Below, one piece after another: positions 4,559-46,075 of a DNA stretch of 64,000 bases. The stretch comes from Candidatus Omnitrophota bacterium (GTDB taxonomy: Bacteria > Omnitrophota > Omnitrophia > Omnitrophales > JACROU01). The notes under the pieces are model-generated. The model was not told the DNA's origin, did not search any database, and saw only the letters and a list, made by a program, of their open reading frames with translations. A program made the translations under genes and the position numbers. The stretch spans positions 230,882 through 294,881 of the forward strand of contig JAJDCD010000008.1 in NCBI GenBank assembly GCA_029261035.1. Reading direction: 5' to 3'. Numbering within the stretch: the first letter of the stretch is position 1; every line of letters begins with the position of its first letter.

Positions 4559-4823
4559 TCCTAAATCACCTTCACTAGACAACAAATGCCTTTATCCCAA
4601 TCCAAAATTAAAACCCCAACAATAATAATACTTTCGTTATTTAATTAATAACGAAACACCCTAAACCCCAGAAACAATAGTTGCTCGATGCAACTCTTGT
4701 TTCAACCACCTAACACCCCACACATGTTTACAACTCTAAAGAACAAGTGCGTATCCTCGCCGCGAGTTGCGCAAGCCAAAGGCCGAGCATGTCTGAGCGC
4801 CGAGGATATGCACTTGTTCGAAC
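4559..4823. repeat. Intergenic structured repeat element, copy 1 (candidate ncRNA or hairpin-targeting element)
   Basis: About 265 bp shared with 14331-14600: identical hairpins TTTCGTTATTTAATTAATAACGAAA and GTTGCTCGATGCAAC, conserved core CCGCGAGTTGCGCAAGCCAAAGGCCGAGCATGTCTGAGCGCC flanked by an 18-bp stem whose sequence differs between copies but stays complementary. Confidence 0.6.
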
Positions 4824-4996
4824 GCCCCTTAACATCCACCAACACAACCAAAACAGTCCTATATTATACATGAAACAAACAGATTACCGGAAGCAGTCTA
4901 TAAGAAAATTAATACCAGGTAGGTTAAATGAGTTAAATCCCATAAATCACCTAAAATAAAGCCTAATTCTAGGTGCGAATCCCATATTTAAAGCAT

Positions 4997-5940: not shown

Positions 5941-6726
5941 CTACTCCCCTTCTTTCTCTACTTGTTGAGACGGAAATTTACCATTCAACGCACCTCTAAT
6001 AATTGTTTTAATTGAATCACTAAAATCAGCTCTTAAAATCCACTCCAAATAGTTTTTATCCTTTTCAACAATCTGGTTCAAAGTGATTTTGCGTGCATAT
6101 TTTCCAAACATCAAATACAAACCACCATTCCACCAACTAAATCTTTTTTCTTTATCAAAAAACTCCATTGGCGACGAGTAATCAAAGTCCTTTAAACTTT
6201 CAACGCTCCCATCTCCATACTTATCTGCTTGGGATTGAATAATCTCCAATGTTGCTTCTGTATCCGCCATAGCCGTATGCGCATTCATCAGCTCCTTCTC
6301 ACAGTAAAACTTATAGCCCGCACTTAAATCTCTTTTCTCATGAATATGAAAAACTTTTTGGGCATCATAAACAGTCCGTTTTCGCCAATCAAAAGGATAA
6401 CCTGCATCGCTCATTTCCCTTTCCAGCACGGGTAAATCAAAACGCTCACAATTAAAGCCCCCTAAGTCTGCATCTCCTATAAATCGAAGTATTTCAGCAG
6501 CAATATCCTTAAACCAAGGAGCATCTTTCACATCCTCATCCTTAATTCCAATAAGCTCACTGACCTTGGGAGGGATAGGAATTCTAGGGTTGCATCGTTC
6601 TAAGTATTTTTCTGAGGTCCCATCAGGGTTACACTTAATCAAAGCAATCTCAACAATACGGTCTTTTTCAATCCAAATACCCGTTGTTTCCAAATCGAGA
6701 ACAACAAGAGGATTTGTTAATTTCAT
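5941..6726 (-). CDS. 3'-5' exonuclease domain protein (DnaQ-like DEDDh) with C-terminal extension
   Basis: Exo I motif LVVLDLETTG, downstream H..ADT.AT motif; 261 aa. Confidence 0.75.
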   Translation of the reverse strand: MKLTNPLVVLDLETTGIWIEKDRIVEIALIKCNPDGTSEKYLERCNPRIPIPPKVSELIGIKDEDVKDAPWFKDIAAEILRFIGDADLGGFNCERFDLPVLEREMSDAGYPFDWRKRTVYDAQKVFHIHEKRDLSAGYKFYCEKELMNAHTAMADTEATLEIIQSQADKYGDGSVESLKDFDYSSPMEFFDKEKRFSWWNGGLYLMFGKYARKITLNQIVEKDKNYLEWILRADFSDSIKTIIRGALNGKFPSQQVEKEGE

Positions 6727-8219
6727 AATAATTCCTTTATCACCTTATTAAAGTCTTCTTTAAATTGATTAAACAAACGAGCATTGTACCCTACAGATAG
6801 TCTACGGTAAACAATATCTTCTTCCTTAATAGCCATCTCAACATCAATAGAGTATTTTATTTGAGCTTTAATCATAGGTAAATCTGGATGGATTCTCTCT
6901 TTTAGTTCCGAATTTTCTTTTGTTAAATTTAGCACATCTTTATAACGAGCTCCGTACTTACTCATCAACTCACTTAATACTTCTAAATCAACACCATATT
7001 TTTCCGAAATTTGTTTAGGGTCATCCATTATTTTGCCCCCACTATATAAACTATACCTCTGTGTATTCGGAATCCTTATTAAACGTTTCAAACAATCAAA
7101 AGCCATTCTACGATATGTGGTGTACTTCCCACCTGCAACATAAGAAACCCCTGATTTGCTTTCATGAATCATGTGTTCCCTAGAAACTTTAGATGGATGC
7201 CCCTTGCTTTTAATAAGAGGCCTTAACCCAGCAAAGGAAACCGTATCTGTATGATCTAATTTCAAACCTGGAAAAACTCTCTTAGCCTCATTCATTAAAT
7301 ACTGAATATCTTCCTTCTCTGGACGAACATCATCAGGGTCCGAAGAATAATCCGTATCTGTAGTTCCAATTAACGAGTTTCCATTCCATGGAATAACAAA
7401 AAATACTCTATTGTCTTTAGGTGAAGGAATAAGAAAAGCATTTTTCGAAATTTCTTCAGGATAAACAATATGAACACCCTTAGTTGTCCTTACAATTTCT
7501 TTCTCATTTTCGCTATCCAGTTTTAATAATTTATTTGTCCAAGGGCCCACGGCACAAATTGTTTTTTCAGCACGAATCGTAAAAGAAGCTCCATGTGGAT
7601 CTAACAAATCTTTAACTTCAGCACCAATCGTTCTACCTTGATGTTTTGCAAATGATTTCACTTCAACATAATTAGCGACGTCCACCCCAACCTCATATGC
7701 GGATAAAACATTTTCTAAACAAAGACGGGCATCGTCCATCTGAGCATCATAATAAAGAACCCCACCTTTCAAACCTTCTCTGTTAATGCCAGGCTCTAAA
7801 TGAATAACTTCTTCAGCTGTTAAATTGCGATGTGGGCGAATATTATATTTAAAAGAAAGCAGATCATAGAGAAAGACCCCCAGCTTTACGATCCAAAAAG
7901 GCCTTTTATCTCCTTTATAAACTGGAATCACAAATGGCATAGGCCTTACCAAATGGGGAACTTCCTTTAAATGAATAAAACGCTCAATCAATGCTTCACG
8001 CACCAACTTAAACTGAAAGCTCTCCAAATAACGAATACCCCCATGAACTAGCTTTGAAGATTTGCTCGAAGTTCCACTAGCAAAATCCCCTTTATCAATC
8101 AAAGCTGTCTTAAGACCCATTGAAGCCGCTATATAAGCAATGGACGCACCATTAATGCCTCCTCCAATGACTAATAGATCATAAGTGCTCTTCTTTAAAT
8201 TTTCCACACGTCGCTTCAT
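6723..8219 (-). CDS. glpD: FAD-dependent glycerol-3-phosphate dehydrogenase
   Basis: N-terminal FAD dinucleotide fold DLLVIGGGINGASIA, 498 aa, GlpD-like length and motifs. Confidence 0.85.
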   Translation of the reverse strand: MKRRVENLKKSTYDLLVIGGGINGASIAYIAASMGLKTALIDKGDFASGTSSKSSKLVHGGIRYLESFQFKLVREALIERFIHLKEVPHLVRPMPFVIPVYKGDKRPFWIVKLGVFLYDLLSFKYNIRPHRNLTAEEVIHLEPGINREGLKGGVLYYDAQMDDARLCLENVLSAYEVGVDVANYVEVKSFAKHQGRTIGAEVKDLLDPHGASFTIRAEKTICAVGPWTNKLLKLDSENEKEIVRTTKGVHIVYPEEISKNAFLIPSPKDNRVFFVIPWNGNSLIGTTDTDYSSDPDDVRPEKEDIQYLMNEAKRVFPGLKLDHTDTVSFAGLRPLIKSKGHPSKVSREHMIHESKSGVSYVAGGKYTTYRRMAFDCLKRLIRIPNTQRYSLYSGGKIMDDPKQISEKYGVDLEVLSELMSKYGARYKDVLNLTKENSELKERIHPDLPMIKAQIKYSIDVEMAIKEEDIVYRRLSVGYNARLFNQFKEDFNKVIKELL

Positions 8220-8260
8220 AATCGCTCACATTCAAGTTTTTGCTTTTCAACTAACAGAAT

Positions 8261-8274
8261 GTCACATATGTGAC
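8261..8274. promoter_or_regulatory. Perfect 14-bp palindrome GTCACATATGTGAC in divergent glpD/MFS promoter region (candidate operator)
   Basis: Self-complementary 14-mer about 42 bp upstream of glpD start codon; no cognate regulator identified. Confidence 0.3.
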
Positions 8275-8399
8275 GTTCCCAATTACTTGCATTTTAATTC
8301 AAAACTCCCTCGAATCAAATAACCTTCTTTCCAAAACAGATAATAATTGCTATCCTACTGCCTTTGAAATTAATCCAAATCAAAAACTAGGATCCCTCA

Positions 8400-9656
8400 T
8401 TGAACAAGAAAGCCGCTCTCTTCACCGTTTTTTTAGCAGTCCTCATAGACCTTATGGGTTTCGGACTCGTTCTCCCATTAATTCCTTTTTATGCTACAAA
8501 ATTCAATGCAACACCTATAACAATTGGACTTCTTTACAGTGTTTACTCCTTCGCCCAACTCATCTGCTCTCCTATCTGGGGGAGTTTTTCAGATCGATTT
8601 GGAAGACGACCTATTATGCTCATAAGCACTCTAGGCGCGTCAATCGCTTATCTTATATTTGGTTTCGCTAACTCGATACTTATCCTCTTTATATCTCGAC
8701 TCTTTGCCGGCGTGATGGGTGGAAATATTTCTGCAGCTCAAGCCTACGTAGCAGATGTTACATCTCATGAAGATCGCGCTAAAGGCATGGGGCTCATCGG
8801 AGCCGCTTTTGGAATTGGGTTTTTATTTGGCCCTGCCATCGCTTCTGTATTAATCCACCCAAAGTTCATGAGTTTTTTTAACATTCCGGAAAATTATAAA
8901 TTTTTAATCCCAGGATTATTTGCTTCAGCCTTATCTCTAATAAGTTTCTTTTTTGTTCTATTCAAACTTCCAGAAACAGTCAAAAAAGGTGCCCCCTCTG
9001 AAGAAGTCGATCCAGAACGAATCTCGAAATCTAGCATCTTCAGCAAATCCTTTTGGGTTTCTATCTTGGCAGAAAAACCATCAGGCACACGATATATCCT
9101 TCCCATTTTAATTGGATGTATCTTCTTATTCTCTTTTGGTCAAGCCAGCCTCTATAGCTCGTTTCCTTTATTCTGTAAATTTCAGCTAGAAATCCCTGTA
9201 GAAAAAGTTGGGCTTCTTTTTGCTTTTATGGGCCTCATTGCCATCTTTGTTCAGGGTGGTCTAATTCGAATCTTAGTTAAGAAATACAGTGAAGAACCTG
9301 TGTTTTTAACAGGCAGCGTTTTAATGGTAATCGGCTTTGCCCTTATTCCTTGTGCTCAATCTAGAAATCAATTACTTTTAGTATTAGTTCCCCTTGCTCT
9401 TGGTGGCAGCTTAACAGCCCCCACACTCACTAGCTTTATCTCCAAAGAAGCAGATCCAAAACGTTTAGGACAAGCAATGGGAACCTCTCAAGGGGTATCT
9501 GCTCTTGGAAGAGCTTTAGGTCCTACTTGGGGTGGAATACTTTATGGAATGTCTTTCTTTTTACCTTTTATTGTAACTTCAGGAATTATTGTACTGACAG
9601 TTGTTGCAGGAATTGTTATTTGGAACAACCATAGATCTAAGCAAACTTCCCTCTAA
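8400..9656 (+). CDS. MFS transporter
   Basis: 418 aa, about 12 predicted TM segments, MFS-like motifs (GxxSDRFGRRP); TTG start. Confidence 0.8.
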   Translation: MNKKAALFTVFLAVLIDLMGFGLVLPLIPFYATKFNATPITIGLLYSVYSFAQLICSPIWGSFSDRFGRRPIMLISTLGASIAYLIFGFANSILILFISRLFAGVMGGNISAAQAYVADVTSHEDRAKGMGLIGAAFGIGFLFGPAIASVLIHPKFMSFFNIPENYKFLIPGLFASALSLISFFFVLFKLPETVKKGAPSEEVDPERISKSSIFSKSFWVSILAEKPSGTRYILPILIGCIFLFSFGQASLYSSFPLFCKFQLEIPVEKVGLLFAFMGLIAIFVQGGLIRILVKKYSEEPVFLTGSVLMVIGFALIPCAQSRNQLLLVLVPLALGGSLTAPTLTSFISKEADPKRLGQAMGTSQGVSALGRALGPTWGGILYGMSFFLPFIVTSGIIVLTVVAGIVIWNNHRSKQTSL

Positions 9657-14110: not shown

Positions 14111-14285
14111 CCATCTGCTCCTTTTTCTTTTTCGACCCTGCAATTAGCATCATAACGCCTAAAGTAAAAAAAGAAAGAAAACTGATCATTGCCCAAACAA
14201 GACTTCTCTGAGAACCCGTAATAAACGCAAATAAAAAGAAAACAATAGCCGGCAACGTATAACTAACAAAATGCTTCATCCCCAC
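14097..14285 (-). CDS. Small hypothetical membrane protein (2 TM)
   Basis: 62-aa ORF with two hydrophobic segments and a K/E-rich tail; no recognisable family. Confidence 0.35.
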   Translation of the reverse strand: MGMKHFVSYTLPAIVFFLFAFITGSQRSLVWAMISFLSFFTLGVMMLIAGSKKKKEQMDEEK

Positions 14286-14330
14286 CCCTTTAACTCCAAA
14301 AAAAGATCGTTACACAAGTAACGATACAAC

Positions 14331-14600
14331 CCTAAATCCTATCCAAACACTCTCAGAACTGACAACGCCTTTATCCCACTCCACAAATAAAATTCCTAAA
14401 AATAACAATGCGTTTCGTTATTTAATTAATAACGAAACACTATAAACCCAAGAAACAATAGTTGCTCGATGCAACTCTTGTTTCAACCCCTAACACCCCA
14501 CAAAAGTTATTAACTTAAAGGAAAATGGAATATTTCCGCCGCGAGTTGCGCAGCCCAAAGGGCGAGCATGTCTGAGCGCCGGAAACATTCCATTTTCCGA
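14331..14600. repeat. Intergenic structured repeat element, copy 2
   Basis: Second copy of the 4559-4823 element; stem GGAAAATGGAATATTTCCG / CGGAAACATTCCATTTTCC encloses the same conserved core. Confidence 0.6.
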
Positions 14601-14621
14601 CTCACCCCAATAACTCCCCCG

Positions 14622-16808: not shown

Positions 16809-16998
16809 TCAGCCTCTCAAAATAAGCACAATTACATTAAGTATTAATAAAATAACAAGTTATACAAATTATACCCTTTTATATGGAAAACAAAAAGAGC
16901 TGTTGTCATTCCGAAAAGAGTAACAGCGCATGTCCACCATCATGTTGGATGGAAAAAATATCGTAGAGATTAAACGAAAATACATAATAAGTCCCTCA

Positions 16999-17048
16999 GA
17001 CAGGCCCGGGCCTCTTATTTTCGAAAAAAGGAGGCCCGGGCCTAAATG
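16999..17048. repeat. Quasi-palindromic repeat with two AGGCCCGGGCCT palindromes (copy 1)
   Basis: AGGCCCGGGCCT at 17002-17013 and 17032-17043 around central TTTCGAAA; same unit at 17479-17528; minus-strand reading gives hairpin plus T-run just after the gene stop (terminator-like). Confidence 0.6.
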
Positions 17049-17066
17049 CATAAATGCACTAACTTA

Positions 17067-17420
17067 TTACTTCCAATTCTTCTTAAATACCACCTCATCA
17101 AAACCCACCGTATGCTTCTTCCCATCACTGATAATAGGTCTTTTAACCAACTTCCCATTCTTAGCTAGTAATTGGACTAAATCAGCCTCTTTCATCGTTT
17201 TAATCTTATCCCTCATATTCATCTCTCGATACAGAACTCCTGACTTATTAAACAAATCCTTAATCCCATAAGTCCCTTCTTTTAATATAGTTACAAATAA
17301 TTTCTTACTTGGAGGCCTAGACGTAATATCGATATCCTTATACTGAATCTTCTTCCCATCCAAGTATTTCTTAGCATTCCTACAAGTTCCACATTTATCA
17401 TACCCATAAAACTCCATCAT
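17067..17420 (-). CDS. ArsC/Spx/YffB-family thioredoxin-fold protein
   Basis: N-terminal YGYDKCGTCRNAKKYL (CxxC) typical of ArsC/Spx family; start placed at internal MMEF. Confidence 0.65.
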   Translation of the reverse strand: MMEFYGYDKCGTCRNAKKYLDGKKIQYKDIDITSRPPSKKLFVTILKEGTYGIKDLFNKSGVLYREMNMRDKIKTMKEADLVQLLAKNGKLVKRPIISDGKKHTVGFDEVVFKKNWK

Positions 17421-17478
17421 CCCAAACTCCCTTCTAGTTAAATGAAATAATTCAGAGACATTATACACACCACCCCAA

Positions 17479-17528
17479 AACAGGCCCGGGCCTGTTTTTT
17501 TCGAAATATTCAGGCCCGGGCCTAAATG
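17479..17528. repeat. Quasi-palindromic repeat with two AGGCCCGGGCCT palindromes (copy 2)
   Basis: CAGGCCCGGGCCTG + T7 (17481-17500), TTTCGAAA, second AGGCCCGGGCCT at 17512-17523; direct repeat of 16999-17048 bracketing the gene. Confidence 0.6.
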
Positions 17529-22942: not shown

Positions 22943-24569
22943 TGTCCCCCAATGGTAGTGATATTCTGAATGTCACTCCTGGCTTATTTTCTTTTTTAAT
23001 TTCAATTTTTCCACCATGAATATCTTCGATAATGTGCTTGCAGATAAAAAGCCCCTGCCCTTGCCCAGACAGATTAACATCAGCGATCACATATCCCTTA
23101 GTAGTAAATCCCTGCACCCAAATATCCTCTTCTATCTCCCTCTTAATCCCTGGCCCAATATCAGAGAATTCAATCTCAGCTTCTCCTTCGTTCTTAGGAT
23201 TTTTTCTAGCATAAATAATTATCTTTTTCTTACGATAAGGCTTCATTGCCTCAATGGAATTTTTAATCATATTGGTAAATACCTGTATCAGTTGTTCAAT
23301 GTTACCGTTAACCACCAAATTGGGCTCAATATGCTCTTCCACATTCAAGTTTAGAGCATCCTCTGTATCAAATGTAAGAAATCTTTTTGCCTCCAAACAT
23401 TCCTTCCATAAGATCCTAAAATTCAGAGGCCCAATCTCCCCACTTTCTCCTTCTTCCAAATTAGTTAAAGTTCTAACAGCTACTTCAATTCGTTTTCCTG
23501 ATCTATATATCCTTTCAGCCTTATCTTTTATTTTTTTCAAATTATCCAAAACTACATTCTGTTCTTCTAAGTCAGAATCTGTCATTAAGCTCTCTTTGTA
23601 ATAAGATTCTAACTCTAAAACAGCTTCTTCGCTCAAGGTATTAGAACGAGCCAATAACCATGCTAGTGGATTATTGATTTCATGCCCCATCGCCTTTGCC
23701 ATACCGTCTAAAACACCCCTCTTCTCAGCCAAAATTAACTCTGTTTGCATATCTTGAAGCATCCTATTCTTTGATTCTAATTCTTTATTACTATTTTCAA
23801 TTTCTTCCCTTTTATTGACGGCTTGGTCATAAAGCCGAGCATTTTCTATAGCTATCTCTGACTGTTGAGCTAAAATAGAAAATACTTTTATTTCTTCTGC
23901 TTGGTATCGTTTTCCAGACTTTTTTTCCCCTAGAAAGAAGACGCCTCTCAATTTAGAGCCTTCTGCCTGTCCACGGCTTGTTTTAAAACTAGGAATAATA
24001 AGCATTATCTCATTCTCTTTCATAAATTTCTCTATGTCAGCAACTTCAGCATTGTAATTTATCTGGAGTAAATTCCTATAAGAAATATATGTTTGATATT
24101 TATTAATATATTCCAAAACATTACATTTTAAAACACCCCCAACAACTCCTCTGCTTGCTTCTAAAGTAAGTTCTCCACTCTTTTCATCGCGCACATAAAT
24201 TTGAGCCGATTTAATTCTAGCCCATAGACATAATATAAGAACCAGAAGATTGGAAACCTCGGACAAACTCCTTACTTTAGATATTGCCTGTCCCGCTTTT
24301 TGAAGAAACTTTTTATGATTAAAGTCTTCCCTAAAAACAGTATTCTCTACCCCATAGGTAACACCCCGTTTAATTGGGTAATAAACCAACATCGCAAAAA
24401 TAACTCCAAACCCCATAAATATATTACTATTTACTATGGCTTTATCTCCAAGAAGAGCCAACGTAAGTTCAGCAACAACAACCCCCATACCTATGATAAT
24501 TAAAAACAGTAATACAAATATGAGCACTGATTTTATATATCTATTTAAATCTGTTATTTTATATTTCAT
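22929..24569 (-). CDS. Sensor histidine kinase (2 TM, GAF-like, HisKA, HATPase_c)
   Basis: H-box MAKAMGHEINNPL, G-boxes in C-terminus (GQGQGLFICKHII); N-terminal TM pair; overlaps neighbours by 11-14 bp. Confidence 0.85.
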   Translation of the reverse strand: MKYKITDLNRYIKSVLIFVLLFLIIIGMGVVVAELTLALLGDKAIVNSNIFMGFGVIFAMLVYYPIKRGVTYGVENTVFREDFNHKKFLQKAGQAISKVRSLSEVSNLLVLILCLWARIKSAQIYVRDEKSGELTLEASRGVVGGVLKCNVLEYINKYQTYISYRNLLQINYNAEVADIEKFMKENEIMLIIPSFKTSRGQAEGSKLRGVFFLGEKKSGKRYQAEEIKVFSILAQQSEIAIENARLYDQAVNKREEIENSNKELESKNRMLQDMQTELILAEKRGVLDGMAKAMGHEINNPLAWLLARSNTLSEEAVLELESYYKESLMTDSDLEEQNVVLDNLKKIKDKAERIYRSGKRIEVAVRTLTNLEEGESGEIGPLNFRILWKECLEAKRFLTFDTEDALNLNVEEHIEPNLVVNGNIEQLIQVFTNMIKNSIEAMKPYRKKKIIIYARKNPKNEGEAEIEFSDIGPGIKREIEEDIWVQGFTTKGYVIADVNLSGQGQGLFICKHIIEDIHGGKIEIKKENKPGVTFRISLPLGDSDGK

Positions 24570-27500
24570 ATCTTTTCCCTAAGGGTAAACAAATAATAAA
24601 ACAAGCCCCTTCATTTAAATCCTCATCCAAACTTATCTTTCCCTTGTGAATTGTTTCTACAATATGCCGACAAACATAAAGTCCTTGCCCTAACAACCCT
24701 GACTCCCCCACATCAACCTGTTTCGTTGTAAAATCTTTTTGCCATATTTGATGACGCAGCTCTACAGGAATTCCTTTTCCATTATCCAGAAATCTAATCT
24801 CCAAATATCCATTTTTATTATCTTCCTTAGCTGATACTGAAATTCTTTTATTCTTCTGTTCCCGCATAGCCTCATAAGAGTTTTTAATTAAATTATTAAA
24901 AACCTGAACCATGTTTCCCATATTTCCCATAACCATAGCATCAGAAGGAATAGTTGCACTAAATTGACAATTCCCCAATGTCTCATCGTACATAGAAAAC
25001 CGACTCGTCTTTAATGATTCATTCCAAACACTACCAAATGAAATTGGCTCCAGCCCACCTTTACTACTTTTCATCAAATCTGTTAATATTTTTACAGCTA
25101 GCTCTATCTGGTTCCCCGATCGATCCATCCTCATACAAAGATCCTCAATCCCCCCTAATTTCTCTTTAAATACCCTTAAAGGCTCTTCTCTAAGCCCATT
25201 GGGGGAACTCGATAAAGAATTGCGTATTTCCCTTAAATCCTCTTGTAAAATACCACTTATTCGGGCCCGTGCGATAGCCAACGGGTTATTTATCTCATGC
25301 CCCATCGCTTTTGCCATATTCACCATAGTATTCGTTTTTTCAGCAATAATAATCTGAGCCTGTTTTTCCTTAATCTTAGAGTTAAATTCTTCAAGTTTAA
25401 TATGATTTTTCTCAAGATCTTCAGTTTTCTCAAGCACTTCATCCAATAGCACCGCATTTTCAACTGCTACAGCCACACCATGAGACAACGTAAATAAAGT
25501 ACTAACCTCATCAGCAGAGTAATCTTCATCTGACTTTTTCTTCCCTAATGCAATAATACTATTCAAAATAATCTTCCCACTTTCATCTACTCTCATGCAG
25601 GGTAATAAGAGATCTGCCTTAAGCTCCTCCATTAAGAGCATAATTTCGTGATAGTTATAATCTTCATAATGCTTTTTCTTATCTTCCTGAAAAACATCTC
25701 TAAATCTAATCGGCAATCTCCGTTCAAGAAAATATTTTATTACCGAATGAGAGTGAAACAACTCTAACTTAGAAAAAGCAGAACCTTTTCCTCGCACAGC
25801 CGAAACAACAAAAGATTGTTTTGTTTTACTTCGAAATAGAAATGTTGCATTATCAATTCGAGTGCCTAATGTAAAAACGGTGACAAGCTGACGGGATAAA
25901 TCATTTAAATTCCGAACCCTTGAGATCAAATGACTCACATTTGAAAGCAACTGACCAAAATCATATTTTCTCTGGAACAAAAATCGATCCGTAACATGAA
26001 CCAACAAATTTCTGACGGGTTCATAAATTACTAAAATTATCAAAATGCTTAATATGATAGGCATGCCCTTTACATTCTCAAAGGAATAAAATCTCACTAT
26101 GTCAGCAAATTTAAATGAAGAAAACCAGATCAAGGTCACCGTGAGAAAAAAAATAGAAGTAAACACAAGTGTTTTTTTAATAAAAATAGCTATATTCATT
26201 AACTGATAACGAAGAATTGCATAAAAAATCAAAGCTAAAAACATTACTACAAACACGAATCCTATAGGATAAAAAGAATAGCCATAATTTACTAAAAAAT
26301 CACTGCTAGATAAAAAGTAAAAGACCAATGCAATTAAAAGATAATAATTTTGATTTCTTAATCTACAATCTATTCTTTCACGAATAGTTTTAGTCGTGAT
26401 TAAATATAAACATCTCAAAAACATAACAACAACATACACAATGAATAAAAGATGAAATATTCCACACTGAGGATACACACCCCACAATTGCTCATAATAT
26501 CCTTTAATAAATCCCTTTGTTGTAATCAAGAGCAAAATAAACACTGCAGGTATAATTATTAGCTGTCTTGATATTACAATATCTAATCGGCTACCTGAAT
26601 ACTCTGAGAAGAACCTATAAAAATAGTAAGGAATTAAAATTATAAAAACATACCCTGCTTTTATAATATAAATTATTAAAATTGGATTATCTAGTGGAAT
26701 CAATACTCCCCAAGTGAATTGCCAAAAAAAAGTTACGAAGCATATACAAGAAAAGTACTCTCCTATTTTATCTTTTCTATTAATTAGAACATAAATTCCA
26801 AGTCCTAAACTTATGAAGGAAGAAATTAAAGGAAGCAATGCATATATAGTGATTTTGTGAAAATTAGTATTTATAGCAATAAATAGCAAATACAAGAATA
26901 GAGAAAAAATTAATGAAAAAACAATAGTCCTTTTTAGGTAATAATTTACCCCAAGAGCTCTGTGCCTTACTATTACATAAGCCATAATAGCTACATAAAA
27001 GGATATAAGAATGTTGGAATAAGGGGGGAAATATATATCAAATGCTGGCAACCAATTACTGCCACCACCAATATATCCAATCAGAGTCGCAAAAAATATA
27101 TATTTTATTTGAAGAGCTTTCTCTCCACTTTTTTTTATAACATAAATACAGAGCAAACTTAGACCTATTACAGCCTGCAAAGCCCAAAATACTATATACA
27201 AAAAAAATAATGGGTTTTCTTTTGCTGATGGCCAATATCCCCATCTAAAATAACTAACAACATCAAAAAGAATTAGTTTAAAATTAAGAATCAGAAAAAT
27301 AAAACAAACAACATCATTAATAATTAAATATATTATATATTTATTTTTTTGTGAAGTTAAAGATATGACAAAATGCAAAAACATGGAATTGATTAAGATA
27401 ATTCCACCTAACAAGATTTGATAAGACCTCATCCCATCAGAAACATTCTTAGCGATACCCCAATAAAAATACCCATAATTGTATAAAGCAATTGCAAAGC

Positions 27501-27892: not shown

Positions 27893-30214
27893 TTAAGCAA
27901 CTTTATGGGGTAAAGCAGTCAATTCTTCTTCAACTAAAGGAAGTTTTATAACGAATTTTGTTCCCTTTCCAATTTCACTTATTACTACCATTACTCCCTT
28001 ATGCACTGATTCAATAATATGTTTGCAAATATACAAGCCTTGTCCTTGACCAGATGTTCCTATCCCTTTTTTTGCATCTTGTTCCTTTGTAGAATAACCT
28101 TGTTGAAACACTTTTCTTTGAACCTCTTCCGTCATCCCAGGTCCATTATCAATAAATTCTATTCTTGCCATTCCCTGATTTTCCTTGTCTATATCTGCAA
28201 CTAATTTAATTTCTCGGTTGGACTGTTGATCCATAGCTTCATAAGCATTTTTTATTAAATTAGTAAAAACTTGCATTAATTGTTCTAAATTACCATTAAT
28301 TAATAAATTCGCCTTAATATCTTCCTCAAATTCACAAAAACTCAAGTTTTCATCATATGTTGAAAAACGAGTTGCTTGAACAGATTCTTTCCATAAAACT
28401 AAAAAATTTAACGGTGTCATCTCACCTTTTGACTCTTTTAAAATATTAGTCAAAGTCTGCACAGCGACTTTTATTCTTCTCGCAGATTTTTCTACCCTAG
28501 AAATGTAATCAAAAATCTTATCAAAGTTTTCCTCTTCTATTTTTTTCTCTTCAGGAGATAATAGTTGTAAATATGCTGGCATAATTTTCCCTATCTTTTT
28601 CCTTAACAAATCAACACGTCCTTCTACAGTACATAATGGATTGTAAACTTCATGCCCTATAGCTTTAGCCATTCCAACCATCGTTGCATTTTTTTCAGCA
28701 ATAATTAAAGACGATTGAGTTTCTTGTAATCTCAAATTAGAGTTTTCTAATTCTTGATTAGTTTTTTCTAAAGCTATCGTACGATCAATTTTTTCATCAA
28801 ACAAACGCGCATTCTCAATTGCTAATGCCGATTCTTGTGCAATTACTGAAATAACGGAAATTTCAGAATCTCGATATATTTCATCCGACTTCTTTTTCCC
28901 CAAAACTAGTAAGCCTTTTAAATCCGATTCATAATAACTTGCTATTATTAATTCTGCACCCATATATTCAAATTCATTTCTTATTAATTTCAGATCTTCT
29001 ATTTTAATTTTTTTATTGTTAACATTCTTATCTAACATATCCATTATTTCATCATACTTTATATATGCAGTATTCTTGTACGATTTTAAATATCTCATTA
29101 TTACAGAATCACACCTAATTTCTTCAACTTCAATAAAACGATTGTTGTTTTTTCTAACTTCTACTAAACTGAAACTCTCCCCACTCTCCTTAGGCATATA
29201 AATAGATACCGCGCTAATTCTAGCCCTCATTGTCAAAAAATGACTTATCAATTTAAGTTGATGCTTTAAACTATTAATTTTAGCCAACCCCATACTCGCA
29301 TCTTTTAAAAGCTTGCTATAATCATATTTCTTTTGAAAAAGATACTTATCCGTAATATTAATCAAGATCTTTCTAGTTGGATCATACAAAACCATAGAAA
29401 CTAATACGCAAATAATTAAAGTTAAATTAATATTAATTTCATAAAACTGCCCAATTAGATTTTGTGTTAAGATAAATATCAATGATATTACTCCTAAGAC
29501 AACTGAAAACACCCCTGTAAATACTAATGACTTTTTAATAAATACTTCTATATCCATTGCTCTATATTTCAATATTGCATAAGTCATCATCCCCATATAT
29601 ATAGGAGCTAGCCCATTACCAAATGGAGGTATTTGTATGTTATACCAAAGAAAAAAGTTAGTAACTCCTCCAGCATAACCGATAATCATCCCTATTAAAA
29701 CTAGCTTAATCTGATTCCTCCACCCTCCAGTACTTCTTTTTAAAACAACCCATAGAAGATAACATGCATAAACTGCATTAATAAGAAAAAACAAAAGAAA
29801 AAAATGAAACAGAATACTTGGTACTGGCCAATATAGAAAAATATTTCTTTTTTCTACGCCAACTATTAGGTATCCTAAAAAATTTAATATTAAAAATATA
29901 AATGAAAGGATATAAGAAAAGAGAAGATAAGATTCATGTTTCTTATGAAGCTTCACCCAAGAAACTACAAAATCTAAAAAAATTACGGGGATCATGATAG
30001 CGCCAGAAATTAAGATTTTGGCACAGAACAGTGATAAGGATGGGCTTTTGGAAATAAGCCAAAAAAAGTATCCAAAACTCCATATAGCAACCATAAAATT
30101 AAAAAAAGCATATTTTATGTTTACATAGTTTTTAGAGTTCTTAAATAAAACAAAAGACCCTAAAATTATACTTGTTAACGCATTTATTAATCCAGTAATA
30201 GCATAAAAAAACAT
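27893..30214 (-). CDS. Sensor histidine kinase with 7TM-type N-terminal sensor
   Basis: 773 aa; about 7-8 TM N-terminus, GAF-like linker, H-box MAKAIGHEVYNPL, HATPase_c (GTSGQGQGLYICKHIIE). Confidence 0.85.
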   Translation of the reverse strand: MFFYAITGLINALTSIILGSFVLFKNSKNYVNIKYAFFNFMVAIWSFGYFFWLISKSPSLSLFCAKILISGAIMIPVIFLDFVVSWVKLHKKHESYLLFSYILSFIFLILNFLGYLIVGVEKRNIFLYWPVPSILFHFFLLFFLINAVYACYLLWVVLKRSTGGWRNQIKLVLIGMIIGYAGGVTNFFLWYNIQIPPFGNGLAPIYMGMMTYAILKYRAMDIEVFIKKSLVFTGVFSVVLGVISLIFILTQNLIGQFYEININLTLIICVLVSMVLYDPTRKILINITDKYLFQKKYDYSKLLKDASMGLAKINSLKHQLKLISHFLTMRARISAVSIYMPKESGESFSLVEVRKNNNRFIEVEEIRCDSVIMRYLKSYKNTAYIKYDEIMDMLDKNVNNKKIKIEDLKLIRNEFEYMGAELIIASYYESDLKGLLVLGKKKSDEIYRDSEISVISVIAQESALAIENARLFDEKIDRTIALEKTNQELENSNLRLQETQSSLIIAEKNATMVGMAKAIGHEVYNPLCTVEGRVDLLRKKIGKIMPAYLQLLSPEEKKIEEENFDKIFDYISRVEKSARRIKVAVQTLTNILKESKGEMTPLNFLVLWKESVQATRFSTYDENLSFCEFEEDIKANLLINGNLEQLMQVFTNLIKNAYEAMDQQSNREIKLVADIDKENQGMARIEFIDNGPGMTEEVQRKVFQQGYSTKEQDAKKGIGTSGQGQGLYICKHIIESVHKGVMVVISEIGKGTKFVIKLPLVEEELTALPHKVA

Positions 30215-32820: not shown

Positions 32821-32925
32821 AGATTTACAGGGCTTTAGGATATTAACCAAGAAACTTATCGAAGAAGGCATGTTTGATGAGGAAGAAATAGCCAATGAAG
32901 ATGGAGTTGTGATAGAAAATTAAGA
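32821..32925 (-). pseudogene. Relic 3' end of a CPBP-protease gene (duplicate of the 33873-34985 C-terminus)
   Basis: Minus-strand translation gives ...FYHNSIFIGYFFLIKHAFFDKFLG*, matching the C-terminus of the CPBP gene (VVHNSIFIGYFFLIKHAFFDKYLG*); DNA 32857-32916 about 91 percent identical to 33888-33947. Confidence 0.6.
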
Positions 32926-33872: not shown

Positions 33873-34985
33873 TTAGCCTAAATATTTATCGAAGAAGGCA
33901 TGTTTTATTAGGAAGAAATAGCCTATGAATATGGAATTGTGGACCACATGAATCACTATGGATGGGACTAGAGAGTTGCTCTTTTCGTACACATAGGCCA
34001 AAACCATGCCTAATACAAATATGGGGAAAAAAGCAAATATGGAACCATGGATTGATGCGAAAAAGGCTGAGGATAAAACCATAGCCCATTTTGCTCCCCA
34101 TTTTTTTCTGAATGCGGGATAGCAAAACCCTCTGAAGAAGATCTCCTCTACAATAGGCCCTATGGTGCATGCTAAAAAAACAGAAAGATAAATAACCATT
34201 GGGTTTTTTTTATCTTCTTCTAAAAAGATCTCTACCAATTCATGAGGTGGCGGTTCGTAAGAAATCATTTCTGTAATAACAACTAACAAGGCTAAGACCA
34301 TCGCAATAACAGGAAGTATGGCGGAGTAACTTAATAATCCTAACCCCAAGTCTTTAAATCCATATTTGAAGCGCAGTCCAAGGGATGAAAAGTTTGTTTG
34401 ATATTCTTTATTCAGTAGATTCAAAATAAATAAAACGATAACAACATCAATGAAAATAGTTAAAAGTAAAGTCCATAAATTTTCCACCCCCTTGTTATCC
34501 AACAAACTATGAAAAGAGCTTAGCGCAGCTGAAAAAACAAGGGTAGAGAACAAAATGAATATAATACATTTAGCAATATCTCTAACGCTCCAGGGAATTT
34601 CTGTCCGAGGCAATCTTGCTTTAATTATTTCTTTTCCTTTAGCCCACTGGGAAATAATGTTTACATCAATAAAAGCTCCTAAAAATATCCCCCCAAAAAT
34701 AAGTAATGGAATTAATATCATAAAGAAACTCTCTGTAAGAGTAGCCTCTTTAAAAAAATCGAGAATCAACTGAGTTTGGTCTTCTTGTTTTAGCTGGTCC
34801 TCTATTTGTTTCACTTGCTGTATTACTTCAGAAGGCTCTTCTACTTGATTAGGCGAAAGAAAGGAAAGTAAGAGAAAAGAACAGATAGCAAAACAGAACA
34901 AATACGAATAGGTCTTTTCTTCTTTAAAAAATTGATAAATTTCTGAGGTTGTATTTTTGAGGACACTTAGGATTTGATTGATCAT
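33873..34985 (-). CDS. CPBP-family intramembrane metalloprotease (CAAX protease/Abi-like)
   Basis: Motifs EEIFFRGF (EExxxR), FFASIHGS (FxxxH) and HVVHNSIF (HxxxN) in a polytopic membrane protein; 370 aa. Confidence 0.7.
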   Translation of the reverse strand: MINQILSVLKNTTSEIYQFFKEEKTYSYLFCFAICSFLLLSFLSPNQVEEPSEVIQQVKQIEDQLKQEDQTQLILDFFKEATLTESFFMILIPLLIFGGIFLGAFIDVNIISQWAKGKEIIKARLPRTEIPWSVRDIAKCIIFILFSTLVFSAALSSFHSLLDNKGVENLWTLLLTIFIDVVIVLFILNLLNKEYQTNFSSLGLRFKYGFKDLGLGLLSYSAILPVIAMVLALLVVITEMISYEPPPHELVEIFLEEDKKNPMVIYLSVFLACTIGPIVEEIFFRGFCYPAFRKKWGAKWAMVLSSAFFASIHGSIFAFFPIFVLGMVLAYVYEKSNSLVPSIVIHVVHNSIFIGYFFLIKHAFFDKYLG

Positions 34986-43624: not shown

Positions 43625-46075
43625 CTAGGCTTTAACAAATACCAAAGCTTCTCCTTTGAGATCCGCTTTGATTTTGTCTCCAGCTTTAAAAGTTCCTAAC
43701 AACAATTCTTCTGAAAGAACATTCTCAATATATTTTTGAATTGTTCTTTTAAGAGGTCGTGCTCCATAAACAGGATCGTAACCCTTATCAATCAAAAATT
43801 GAACGGCCTTCTTTGAAAAAGTAAGGTCTAACTCTTGTTCATTCAGACGTTTCACAACATCATTTAATTCTAAGTTAATGATTTGCTCAAGATTTTCCCT
43901 ATTCAAAGGATGGAAGACAATCATATCATCCACACGATTCAAAAATTCTGGACGAAAGAAACGCTTCGCTTCATCAACAAGTTTTCCTTTAAGCTCTTCA
44001 AATTTCAAATCATCTCCTGCAGGCTTAAAACCCAGGTCTCCTTGTTTGTGAATGAGGCTAGCACCCACATTGGATGTCATAATCAAAATAACATTTCTAA
44101 AATCCACTTTACGTCCAAAGGAGTCCGTTAAATGCCCATCTTCCATTACTTGGAGTAGAATATTAAAAATATCAGGGTGTGCTTTTTCAATTTCATCTAG
44201 AAGCACAACACTATAGGGACGTCTTCTAATTTTCTCTGTTAACTGCCCTCCTTCTTCATAACCCACATACCCTGGAGGCGCTCCCACTAATCGAGATACA
44301 TTAAACTTTTCTCCATATTCAGACATATCAATTTGAAGAACAGCTTCTCGATCACCAAACATAAAATCAGCCAACGCTCGCGCTAGCAATGTTTTCCCCA
44401 CCCCTGTCGGACCCATAAAAATAAAGCTTCCTATAGGCTTTCTTGGGTTTTGAAGACCACTGCGAGACCTTCTCACTGCATGCGATATAGCTTTAATAGC
44501 TTCTTCTTGACCAATTACCATATTATGCAGCTCTTCTTCCATACGCAATAATCGTTGAGTCTCTTTTTCCTCTAGGCGCTGCAATGGAATTCCTGTCCAT
44601 TTCGCAACCACAACAGCAATGTCTTCATCCGAAACAATAACTTCTGTATCCGATTTCGCTTCTTGCCATTGTTTTTTAACTCGATTAAATTCTTCTTTAG
44701 CTTTACGTTCCGAATCTCTAAGCTTAGCTGCCTTTTCGAAATCTTGATCTTTGATTGAAGACTCTTTTTCTAAGCGAAATTGTTCTATATCTGCCTCAAG
44801 CTTTTTTAGATCTTTTGGAAGAGTTGTTACAGATAAACGCGCTCTAGAACCCGCTTCGTCAATCAAATCAATAGCTTTGTCTGGTAAGAATCGTCCGGTA
44901 ATATAACGGTCCGAAAGCTTCGCCGAAGCCGTCAATGCTTCATCCGTGATCTTCGCACGATGATGCGCTTCGTATTTATCTCTAAGCCCTTTCAAAATCT
45001 CAATTGTTTCGGTCACCGTAGGAGGCTCTACATTTATCGTTTGAAAACGACGAGCTAAAGCAGAATCCTTTTCGATATACTTACGATATTCATCCAATGT
45101 GGTTGCTCCGATACATTGGATTTCACCACGAGATAAAGCTGGTTTTAAAATATTAGAAGCATCAATTGCACCCTCAGCACCTCCAGCTCCTACCAAAGTA
45201 TGTAACTCATCAATAAATATAATAATATTTTCATGTCTTCGAATCTCATCCATAACCGCTTTGATGCGTTCCTCAAACTGCCCTCGATATTTTGTTCCAG
45301 CGACCATAAGGGCCAGATCCAAAACAACAATTCGTTTATCCATTAATATTTCGGGAACATTTCCATTCACAATTCTTTGTGCTAAACCTTCGACGATAGC
45401 CGTTTTACCAACCCCTGCTTCACCTAACAAAACAGGATTGTTTTTCGTACGACGACTTAGAATTTGTGTTACTCGTTCAATTTCATCTTGTCGATTAACA
45501 ACAGGGTCTAGCTTTCCATCACGAGCGTACTGAGATAAATCTCGACCAAAAGAATCTAATGCCGGTGTCTTTGTTTTCCCTTTAGCGACACCCCCAGAAG
45601 CAGCGCCACCACCTCCACCACCTCCGCCTTGAGGAGTAGAAGACCCTAACAGTTTAATTACTTCGGTTCTTACTTTATTAAGATCAAGACCTACATTCAT
45701 TAAAACATGACTAGCAACACCCTCTCCCTCTTTAATTAAACCTAAAAGAAGATGTTCTGTTCCTATATAGTTATGCCCCAAGCGACGAGCTTCATCCATT
45801 GCTAACTCAATTACTTTTTTTGCTTTTGGCGTAAAAGGAATATCTCCAGACACAATAGTGCTAGGACCAAACTGAACTAATTTTTCCACTTCTAAACGGA
45901 TTGTTTCAAGGGAAAGTCCCAAAGTTTGTAATACCGCAGCAGCAACACTTTCTCCTTCTTTAATCAAACCTAAAAGAATATGTTCTGTTCCAATATAATC
46001 ATGATTAAATCGCTTAGCTTCTTCTTTTGCCAATATAATGACTTTGCGTGCTCTTTCTGTAAATCTATCAAACAT
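43625..46075 (-). CDS. clpC: ATP-dependent Clp protease ATP-binding subunit ClpC
   Basis: Duplicated Clp_N repeat, two AAA+ modules ([15 protein letters not shown]; [15 protein letters not shown]), UVR-like coiled coil; poly-Gly linker after N-domain; 816 aa. Confidence 0.9.

Follow-up and report, generated by a model that had tools for sequence, protein, structure and literature searches.

The window, a 64,000-nt stretch of a contig from a Candidatus Omnitrophota bacterium, contains two paralogous copies (A and B) of one non-coding intergenic module of ~280 nt, as read along the minus strand. The module is built around a long hairpin whose outer helix differs in sequence from copy to copy while keeping its pairing, and whose internal loop recurs unchanged in genomes of other phyla. 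Judged by sequence comparison, the hairpin is an uncatalogued family that is sparse in at least three phyla. We tentatively favor the interpretation that it is a transcribed, REP/BIME-like hairpin module of 3′ UTRs and intercistronic regions, with its inner loop as a putative recognition site for a partner, a proposal that we rate at somewhat short of an even chance.

The window is ∼36% G+C with a strongly negative GC skew on the plus strand, and all of the genes adjoining the two copies lie on the minus strand. The copies can be aligned over ∼265 to 290 nt (Table 1). Copy A is followed by gshA, the product of which has its best named homologues exclusively in Omnitrophota, and then by gshB and glutaredoxin (grx) genes; copy B follows a gene for an MMPL-family transporter and precedes an ORF for a small membrane protein with two helices, which begins with the ATG at 14279 and overlaps maf. 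The initial annotation had reported two ∼265-bp copies at 4559 to 4823 and 14331 to 14600, located 45 to 55 bp upstream of minus-strand start codons, and both were present as described; the distance was 53 nt from copy A to the gshA GTG and 46 to 52 nt from copy B to the small membrane ORF. The minus-strand 18-mer core GGCGCTCAGACATGCTCG and the hairpin-2 block GAAACAAGAGTTGCATCGAGCAACTATTGTTTC have exactly two occurrences each in the window, compared to 0 expected from shuffles. No third copy was detected in the window by repeat search, BLAST (word size 7), a covariance model, or a one-mismatch motif (regular expression) scan combined with a stem check. The arms of copies A and B had no match elsewhere in the window at ≤3 mismatches, and the possibility that they are guides for, or copies of, other window sequence was rejected for this reason.

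Table 1. Positions of the two element copies, their parts, and nearby signals in the window.
Feature	Position	Strand	Sequence or setting	Basis
Copy A, whole conserved unit	4559–4841	−	in the 490-nt spacer from the stop of an EVE-domain gene (4997) to the gshA GTG (4506)	Pfam
Copy A, outer helix, 5′ arm	4801–4819	−	GAACAAGUGCAUAUCCUCG	alignment and pairing
Copy A, core	4761–4799	−	CGC, UCAGACA, inner hairpin UGCUCGGCC-UUU-GGCUUGCGC, AACUC, GCG	
Copy A, outer helix, 3′ arm	4741–4759	−	CGAGGAUACGCACUUGUUC	alignment and pairing
Copy A, hairpin 2	4671–4703	−	GAAACAAGAGUUGC-AUCGA-GCAACUAUUGUUUC	identical in copy B
Copy A, hairpin 3	4632–4656	−	UUUCGUUAUU-AAUUA-AAUAACGAAA; U-rich tail; terminator-like	identical in copy B
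TATAAT hexamer	4863–4868	−	possible −10, ∼45 nt upstream of the copy A stem; lacks a good −35	putative
Copy B, whole conserved unit	14331–14620	−	2 nt past the stop of the MMPL gene (14622)	Pfam
Copy B, outer helix, 5′ arm	14580–14598	−	GGAAAAUGGAAUGUUUCCG	alignment and pairing
Copy B, core	14540–14578	−	CGC, UCAGACA, inner hairpin UGCUCGCCC-UUU-GGGCUGCGC, AACUC, GCG	
Copy B, outer helix, 3′ arm	14520–14538	−	CGGAAAUAUUCCAUUUUCC	alignment and pairing
Copy B, hairpin 2	14452–14484	−		
Copy B, hairpin 3	14410–14440	−	13 pairs, then AUUGUUAUUU; terminator-like	terminator scan
Intrinsic terminator	14306–14325	−	8-bp stem and T7 tail, immediately beyond copy B; the SD/ATG (14279) of the operon of the small membrane ORF and maf follows 20 nt downstream	

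Read along the minus strand, the element begins with ∼20 nt that are loosely conserved (67% identity between A and B) and continues into the long hairpin, which comprises a 19-bp outer helix, a G·G mismatch, and three further pairs (CGC/GCG). The internal loop presents UCAGACA on its 5′ side and AACUC on its 3′ side, and it holds a short inner hairpin, GGCC-UUU-GGCU in copy A but GCCC-UUU-GGGC in copy B. Beyond a diverged linker (75% identity) comes an 85-nt block that is 95% identical between the copies and contains two invariant hairpins; a G-rich C-free linker precedes hairpin 2, and another G-rich linker separates this from the A/U-rich hairpin 3. The tail of the element shows 70% identity. 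The long stem is succeeded only by (C)UUUA and was not reported by the terminator scan, which did report hairpin 3 of copy B and the hairpin just past the end of that copy. The latter, a clean intrinsic terminator, leaves no room for a promoter before the SD, so the maf operon needs read-through or attenuation. The promoter scan reported no promoter at copy A, the TATAAT hexamer included.

The hairpins of copies A and B were aligned without gaps on the minus strand, using a slid partner column and 500 shuffles as controls. Eight of the 22 outer-helix pairs were changed on both sides, one G·U and one A·C combination were present, and the inner hairpin contributed one more compensatory change. 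Pairing was found in 98% of the cells, compared to 40 to 52% when the partner column was slid, and the observed values were matched by none of the 500 shuffles. The core is 93% identical between the copies, the central block 95%, and the flanks 67 to 75%, whereas the arms, at 53% (10/19), are the most diverged segment and yet are paired in both. The stem had been described as completely different in the two copies yet complementary; the complementarity stands, but with 10 of 19 arm positions identical the arms are not completely different. This block-wise divergence speaks against a recent, uniform duplication and would fit old copies under selection, with a constraint on sequence in some blocks and on pairing only in the long helix.

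The elements known from other genomes were all found with exact-match patterns taken from the window, and seven distinct full instances are known. Scanning species-representative genomes for the exact 18-mer core returned 16 matches, approximately the chance expectation, and only three of these, all in one Singulisphaera MAG, are related to the element. Several of the 18-mer matches are genuine N-termini beginning MSER because CGAGC-ATG-TCT-GAG-CGC runs through a start codon, and the presence of the core string at real start codons inflates the chance matches for this motif. The same plus-sense string was seen at true starts (M-S-E-R) of unrelated genes in GC-rich genomes (L001, L002, L004, L008, L010, and L021). 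A small ORF starting from the plus-strand core ATG was considered and rejected, as the ORFs diverge right past MSERR; they also overlap real genes in antisense, and the ATG is ATT in the inverted copy of L020. Among the Singulisphaera loci, L006 shows the full architecture with an unrelated 13- to 15-bp outer helix and a different inner hairpin, and L007 and L013 are half copies in which the core is represented by its 5′ half and the helix by its 5′ arm alone. The half copy of L007 runs directly into GC-rich tandem repeats of ∼230 nt (CGACGGCGCGGGCTGCGCGCGAGCGACGGCGCGCAAGGGCT..., positions 620 to 1000).

A metagenome scan with the pattern CTCAGACATGCTCG-N(5–35)-GCAACTCGC matched five loci (L017 to L021). 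Full elements were present in L017 and L020, which are near-identical strains, and in L018, a related species, with outer helices of ∼30 bp; RadC assigns these loci to Gemmatimonadales. L019, an unassigned metagenome contig of 58% G+C, carries the core with its own helix and inner hairpin. A second copy in L020 is diverged and inverted (CUCAGACA-AUGAGCCGCGC...GCGCGGCUCAU-AACUCGC) and has its own 25-bp helix. L021 matches the pattern without stems and was treated as a chance match; the ATG of its core string (143 to 190) starts a Tat-signal protein.

The common architecture consists of a variable outer helix, GC-UCAGACA, a variable inner hairpin, AACUC-GC, and the return of the outer helix, with 5′-GC-UCAGACA-helix-AACUC-GC-3′ as the invariant consensus. 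Genomes as different in G+C content as 36% and 70% share one and the same 9 + 7-nt loop sequence. Between the L017 and L018 orthologues, five outer-helix pairs show compensatory changes and the core shows none. The covariance model built from the window copies only (R1) scored the foreign copies at 37 to 41 bits. In an alignment of five sequences from three phyla, which was model-fitted and leans to structure although its slid controls were far lower, covariation was seen at 19 of the 22 outer pairs, and 98% of the cells were paired, compared to 32 to 50% after sliding. As a further control, a relaxed core pattern gave 68 chance matches in viral contigs, none of which had ≥10 of 12 flanking pairs. 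The pattern initially proposed from the two window copies, a variable helix that keeps its pairing around a conserved core, holds in A and B, in the Gemmatimonadales orthologues, and across three phyla, and all of the external full copies have complementary stems.

Searches of known families and collections did not identify the element. Rfam 15 (gathering threshold plus E ≤ 10) gave no match for either window copy, and it also gave none for the GC-rich homologues; at threshold, the window yielded four tRNAs only. This comparison took in 6S, SRP, T-box, riboswitches, the hammerhead, twister, pistol, and hatchet ribozymes, HEARO, and LhrC. The best match near the copies was LhrC, at 19.5 bits versus a threshold of 110, and the remainder was miRNA and snoRNA noise. 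The initial annotation had recognized no RNA family, and the covariance search agrees in that no Rfam 15 family fits. BLAST searches of phages and plasmids that used the complete element, its core, or the L017 version as the query produced nothing or chance matches at real gene starts (e.g., in S. meliloti pSymB), the strict core pattern had 0 matches in viral contigs, and a literature search for the core sequence and similar descriptions found none. By-eye resemblances to K-turn, loop E, SRP domain IV, 6S, boxA, attC, sigma-54, and 16S h42 were tried, and none fitted.

In six of six independent instances the element lies 22 to 230 nt downstream of the nearest gene and in the same orientation. 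The two L020 copies, 350 nt apart, point in opposite directions, each co-oriented with its own upstream gene, and same-orientation intrinsic terminators follow copy B and L018. The genomic context thus favors the gene strand, which is the minus strand in the window. The position of the window copies could also be read from the other side, as a cis-regulatory 5′ leader (riboswitch or attenuator) of gshA-gshB-grx and the small membrane protein-maf operon, with the core hairpin as the putative sensor and, as the expression platform, either hairpin 3 or the terminator past copy B. Both copies end ∼50 nt before start codons with terminator-like hairpins between core and SD, and the need for read-through at copy B would suit such a device. 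The downstream genes are functionally unrelated, however, and unlike a riboswitch or leader the element has no conserved place upstream of functionally related genes. Moreover, the closest relative has no element at gshA, the core hairpins of L006, L019, and L020 lie between convergent genes with nothing downstream to regulate, the next gene in L018 is 480 nt away and past a terminator, and no Rfam family matches. The 5′-leader role for gshA and maf implied by the original description is weakened by these findings, and we consider it very unlikely.

The pairing itself is strikingly poor in wobble pairs. Only four of 159 cells in the five-sequence alignment are G·U, and the number of G·U pairs on the gene strand (∼3–5) roughly equals that of A·C mismatches (∼5), that is, of G·U on the other strand; the pairing data therefore show neither RNA-level selection nor strand. 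RNAfold predicted the opposite strand to be more stable in six of seven instances. This more stable plus-like folding would be compatible with paralogous genes for trans-acting small RNAs on either strand, in which C-rich G-free linkers of the plus strand might serve as anti-Shine–Dalgarno seeds. Other features point the same way: hairpins strung together modularly by single-stranded linkers, the last of them terminator-like on the minus strand; the TATAAT upstream of copy A; and a faint similarity of the plus strand to LhrC in its CU-rich arrangement (E = 2.8, well short of the threshold). Copy B, however, starts directly after a stop codon with no promoter-like site, the plus strand has no terminator, the promoter scan is empty at copy A, and the 3′ block of A and B was not found in the nearest relative. 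Small RNA genes are, in our judgment, quite improbable.

The distribution of the element among relatives is irregular. The closest relative, with a GshA that is 73% identical, has the same gene order, an EVE-gshA spacer of 16 nt compared to 490 nt, and no element. Synteny with this relative extends over the 9.8 kb that separate A from B; the copies thus mark the ends of neither a duplicated nor a mobile segment, and a composite transposon bounded by A and B was rejected on the same ground. Comparison of window positions 5941 to 8400 with the closest relative (L022, 4762 to 6465) showed that a response-regulator/GGDEF/EAL gene between the MFS transporter and FAD oxidoreductase genes is missing from the window, with synteny otherwise kept. 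The L018 element sits in the secA-radC spacer; among other Gemmatimonadales this spacer is 61 nt in one lineage and elsewhere is long but motif-free or occupied by other genes, and the element was absent from further RadC-linked Gemmatimonadales loci. In another lineage of the order (L026, ∼2270 to 2355), what by sequence is a tRNA-like gene replaces the element in this spacer. The element behaves as a sporadic, duplicative intergenic repeat.

At one locus two near-identical strains can be compared. An indel of 93 nt, with an edge at the hairpin base, distinguishes L020 from L017; the segment in L020 comprises the core plus one arm, which is an inverted copy of the arm retained in L017. The empty site in L017 has this one arm only, beside a GTAG-type REP hairpin, and no pre-existing hairpin. 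From these two sequences, the indel can be read as a hairpin-mediated deletion, the retained arm being homologous to that of the neighboring full copy, or as an insertion that copied its flank in inverted orientation. The empty site also bears on two ideas raised at the outset, that the 43-nt core is a tiny mobile unit residing in the loops of pre-existing hairpins, or that the copies are a functionless segmental duplication. Either would be in keeping with arms that are far more diverged than the core. The arms, however, are internal to a longer conserved unit and are bordered on either side by homologous sequence, the empty site has no hairpin into which a unit could have inserted, divergence is block-wise, pairing survives eight double changes, and the 9.8 kb between the copies is syntenic with the relative. 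Insertion into hairpin loops was not borne out and duplication of a single locus is disfavored, and both ideas are scarcely credible to us.

The same indel would fit a DNA-level palindromic repeat (REP/REPIN- or MITE-like) that would form its hairpin in single-stranded DNA, with the loop as a transposase or nuclease site (e.g., HUH/Y1-type) and with arms maintained by a templated process, such as fold-back synthesis or quasi-palindrome correction, rather than by RNA selection. The position of the indel edge and the content of the segment match this proposal, and near-perfect helices with few G·U pairs and a balance of G·U and A·C are more typical of a templated DNA process than of RNA helices. 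Also in line with it are the half copies in L007 and L013, the degenerate CTCAGACA/CTCAAACA units in L018 and L020 (a third CTCAGACA in the window, at 16995, is covered by chance expectation), and the relatives that lack the element at the same loci. The Gemmatimonadales spacers (L020, 1 to 200 and 680 to 850; L017) are, in addition, mosaics in which the element is embedded among arrays of GTAG-headed REP-like hairpins (GTAGGGGCCGGCCTTGTGCCGGCCCC) and ∼95-nt tandem units. In contrast, no transposase, target-site duplication, or terminal inverted repeat was seen at the window copies, and the arms differ within one genome although transposase-bound ends are normally the conserved part. The opposed copies of L020, each co-oriented with its upstream gene, fit transcription over replication polarity, and the block-wise conservation of ∼130 nt between A and B suggests host-level constraint. 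We regard a purely DNA-level repeat as somewhat unlikely. A separate and unrelated long hairpin of GGGGYCAG repeats was observed in L020 at 2729 to 2813.

According to the 3′-end module that we tentatively prefer, the hairpin would be transcribed from the gene strand together with the upstream gene, in its 3′ UTR or in intercistronic RNA. Its 19 + 3-bp outer helix, on which pairing is the only constraint, encloses the invariant asymmetric internal loop with its short, variable apical hairpin. The hairpin may act in cis at the 3′ end, in termination, processing, or protection from exonucleases as REP/BIME elements do, and the invariant loop could be a docking or cleavage site for a putative, widely conserved factor. 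In the Omnitrophota genome the hairpin is joined to a lineage-specific 3′ block, made up of hairpin 2, the terminator-like hairpin 3, and the G-rich C-free linkers, which probably terminates the upstream transcript and keeps it apart from the following operon. Members of the family spread via duplication and are dispensable at any one locus. Several points count against this proposal: the wobble pairs single out no strand and G·U pairs are very rare, the long stem lacks a proper U-tract, the full instances number only seven, a simple stabilizer or terminator leaves the cross-phylum invariance of the 9 + 7-nt loop unexplained, and the tail terminator of copy B, 20 nt before the next SD, is equally readable as a 5′-leader attenuator. 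The UCAGACA/AACUC hairpin might instead be a functional nucleic-acid motif that is new, shared across phyla, and served by a dedicated partner, for example a new catalytic or protein-docking RNA or a new kind of mobile element that, in line with one reading of the L017/L020 indel, copies adjacent DNA in inverted orientation as its stem. Such self-built stems would explain why stems differ and the loop is fixed; overall we find this an unlikely solution.

Comparison with known systems places the element closest to intergenic repeats with an unusual distribution of constraint. Like the REP/BIME elements of Proteobacteria, it forms intergenic, multi-copy hairpins that vary in presence among relatives and can be arranged in mosaic arrays. 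REP/BIME sequences are also extragenic, downstream of genes, and co-oriented with them, as found here for all six independent instances, and they are usually co-transcribed with the gene just upstream. REPs are 20 to 40 nt in length, and their stem sequence is the conserved, species-specific part. In the present element, by contrast, the stem varies within one genome (arms 53%) and the apical internal loop is invariant across phyla; furthermore, the window copies have no GTAG head at the hairpin foot, and no RAYT gene was seen within the 64 kb of the source genome. The Correia elements of Neisseria and ERIC/IRU of Enterobacteria are transcribed MITEs of ∼100 to 150 nt that form long mRNA hairpins and may carry promoters, terminators, or RNase III sites, and the element resembles them as an intergenic repeat folding into a long hairpin. 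These MITEs have conserved terminal inverted repeats and target-site duplications and are limited to one genus or family, whereas the approximate ends of copies A (4841/4559) and B (14620/14331) show no inverted or direct repeat and the inverted repeat of the element is internal and variable.

Other structured nucleic acids share individual features. Phage T7-type RNase III signals (e.g., R1.1) are intercistronic and co-oriented with the transcript, and they have what we take to be a similar architecture of lower helix, asymmetric internal loop, and upper stem-loop. The ≥19-bp lower helix, internal loop, and upper hairpin of the element may be likened to such signals in architecture alone; T7 loop sequences are unrelated to that of the element, and RNase III does not depend on a particular loop sequence. 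The orphan Rfam "motif" RNAs resemble the element in their occurrence in metagenomes and in helices that covary around conserved unpaired nucleotides; so few G·U pairs are unusual for RNAs of this class. Integron attC sites have paired R″ (RYYYAAC) and R′ (GTTRRRY) boxes at the hairpin base and a variable tip, whereas the element has only one AAC-containing box and its conserved part is internal, not basal.

If the inner loop is truly a recognition site, this would be an uncatalogued structured element common to Omnitrophota, Planctomycetota, and Gemmatimonadota, phyla for which, to our knowledge, there is almost no non-coding RNA or repeat biology on record. The pattern of a fixed loop with a free stem, the opposite of REP and MITE elements, would then imply a conserved trans-acting partner. 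Were the element merely a selfish palindromic repeat, it would be a modest addition to the bacterial intergenic repeats. It provides a concrete, searchable model for annotating the long unexplained spacers in such genomes.

Several other repeats were noted in the window. Two 56-nt direct repeats (16993 to 17048 and 17473 to 17528), 84% identical, flank an ArsC/Spx-family gene (17067 to 17468, minus strand). In both, two AGGCCCGGGCCT palindromes enclose TTTTCGAAA to form a hairpin, and the four AGGCCCGGGCCT sites of the window are all located in these repeats; the first repeat starts with CTCAGACA, as chance expectation allows. Three 71-nt segments that are ∼70% alike (23665 to 23735, 25280 to 25350, and 28635 to 28705) lie in three neighboring large minus-strand genes; by eye they encode a histidine-kinase H-box-like HEINNP and look like tandem paralogues. 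The 3′ end of an Rce1-like CAAX protease family gene (32843 to 32911) is repeated ∼1 kb downstream at 33873 to 33941 (69 nt, 86%), in an unusually long 1.2-kb spacer, and this second copy may be a gene-fragment relic. Finally, a 150-nt repeat with 71% identity (45686 to 45835 and 45914 to 46063) lies inside an 816-aa gene (43625 to 46075) and presumably reflects a repeated protein domain.
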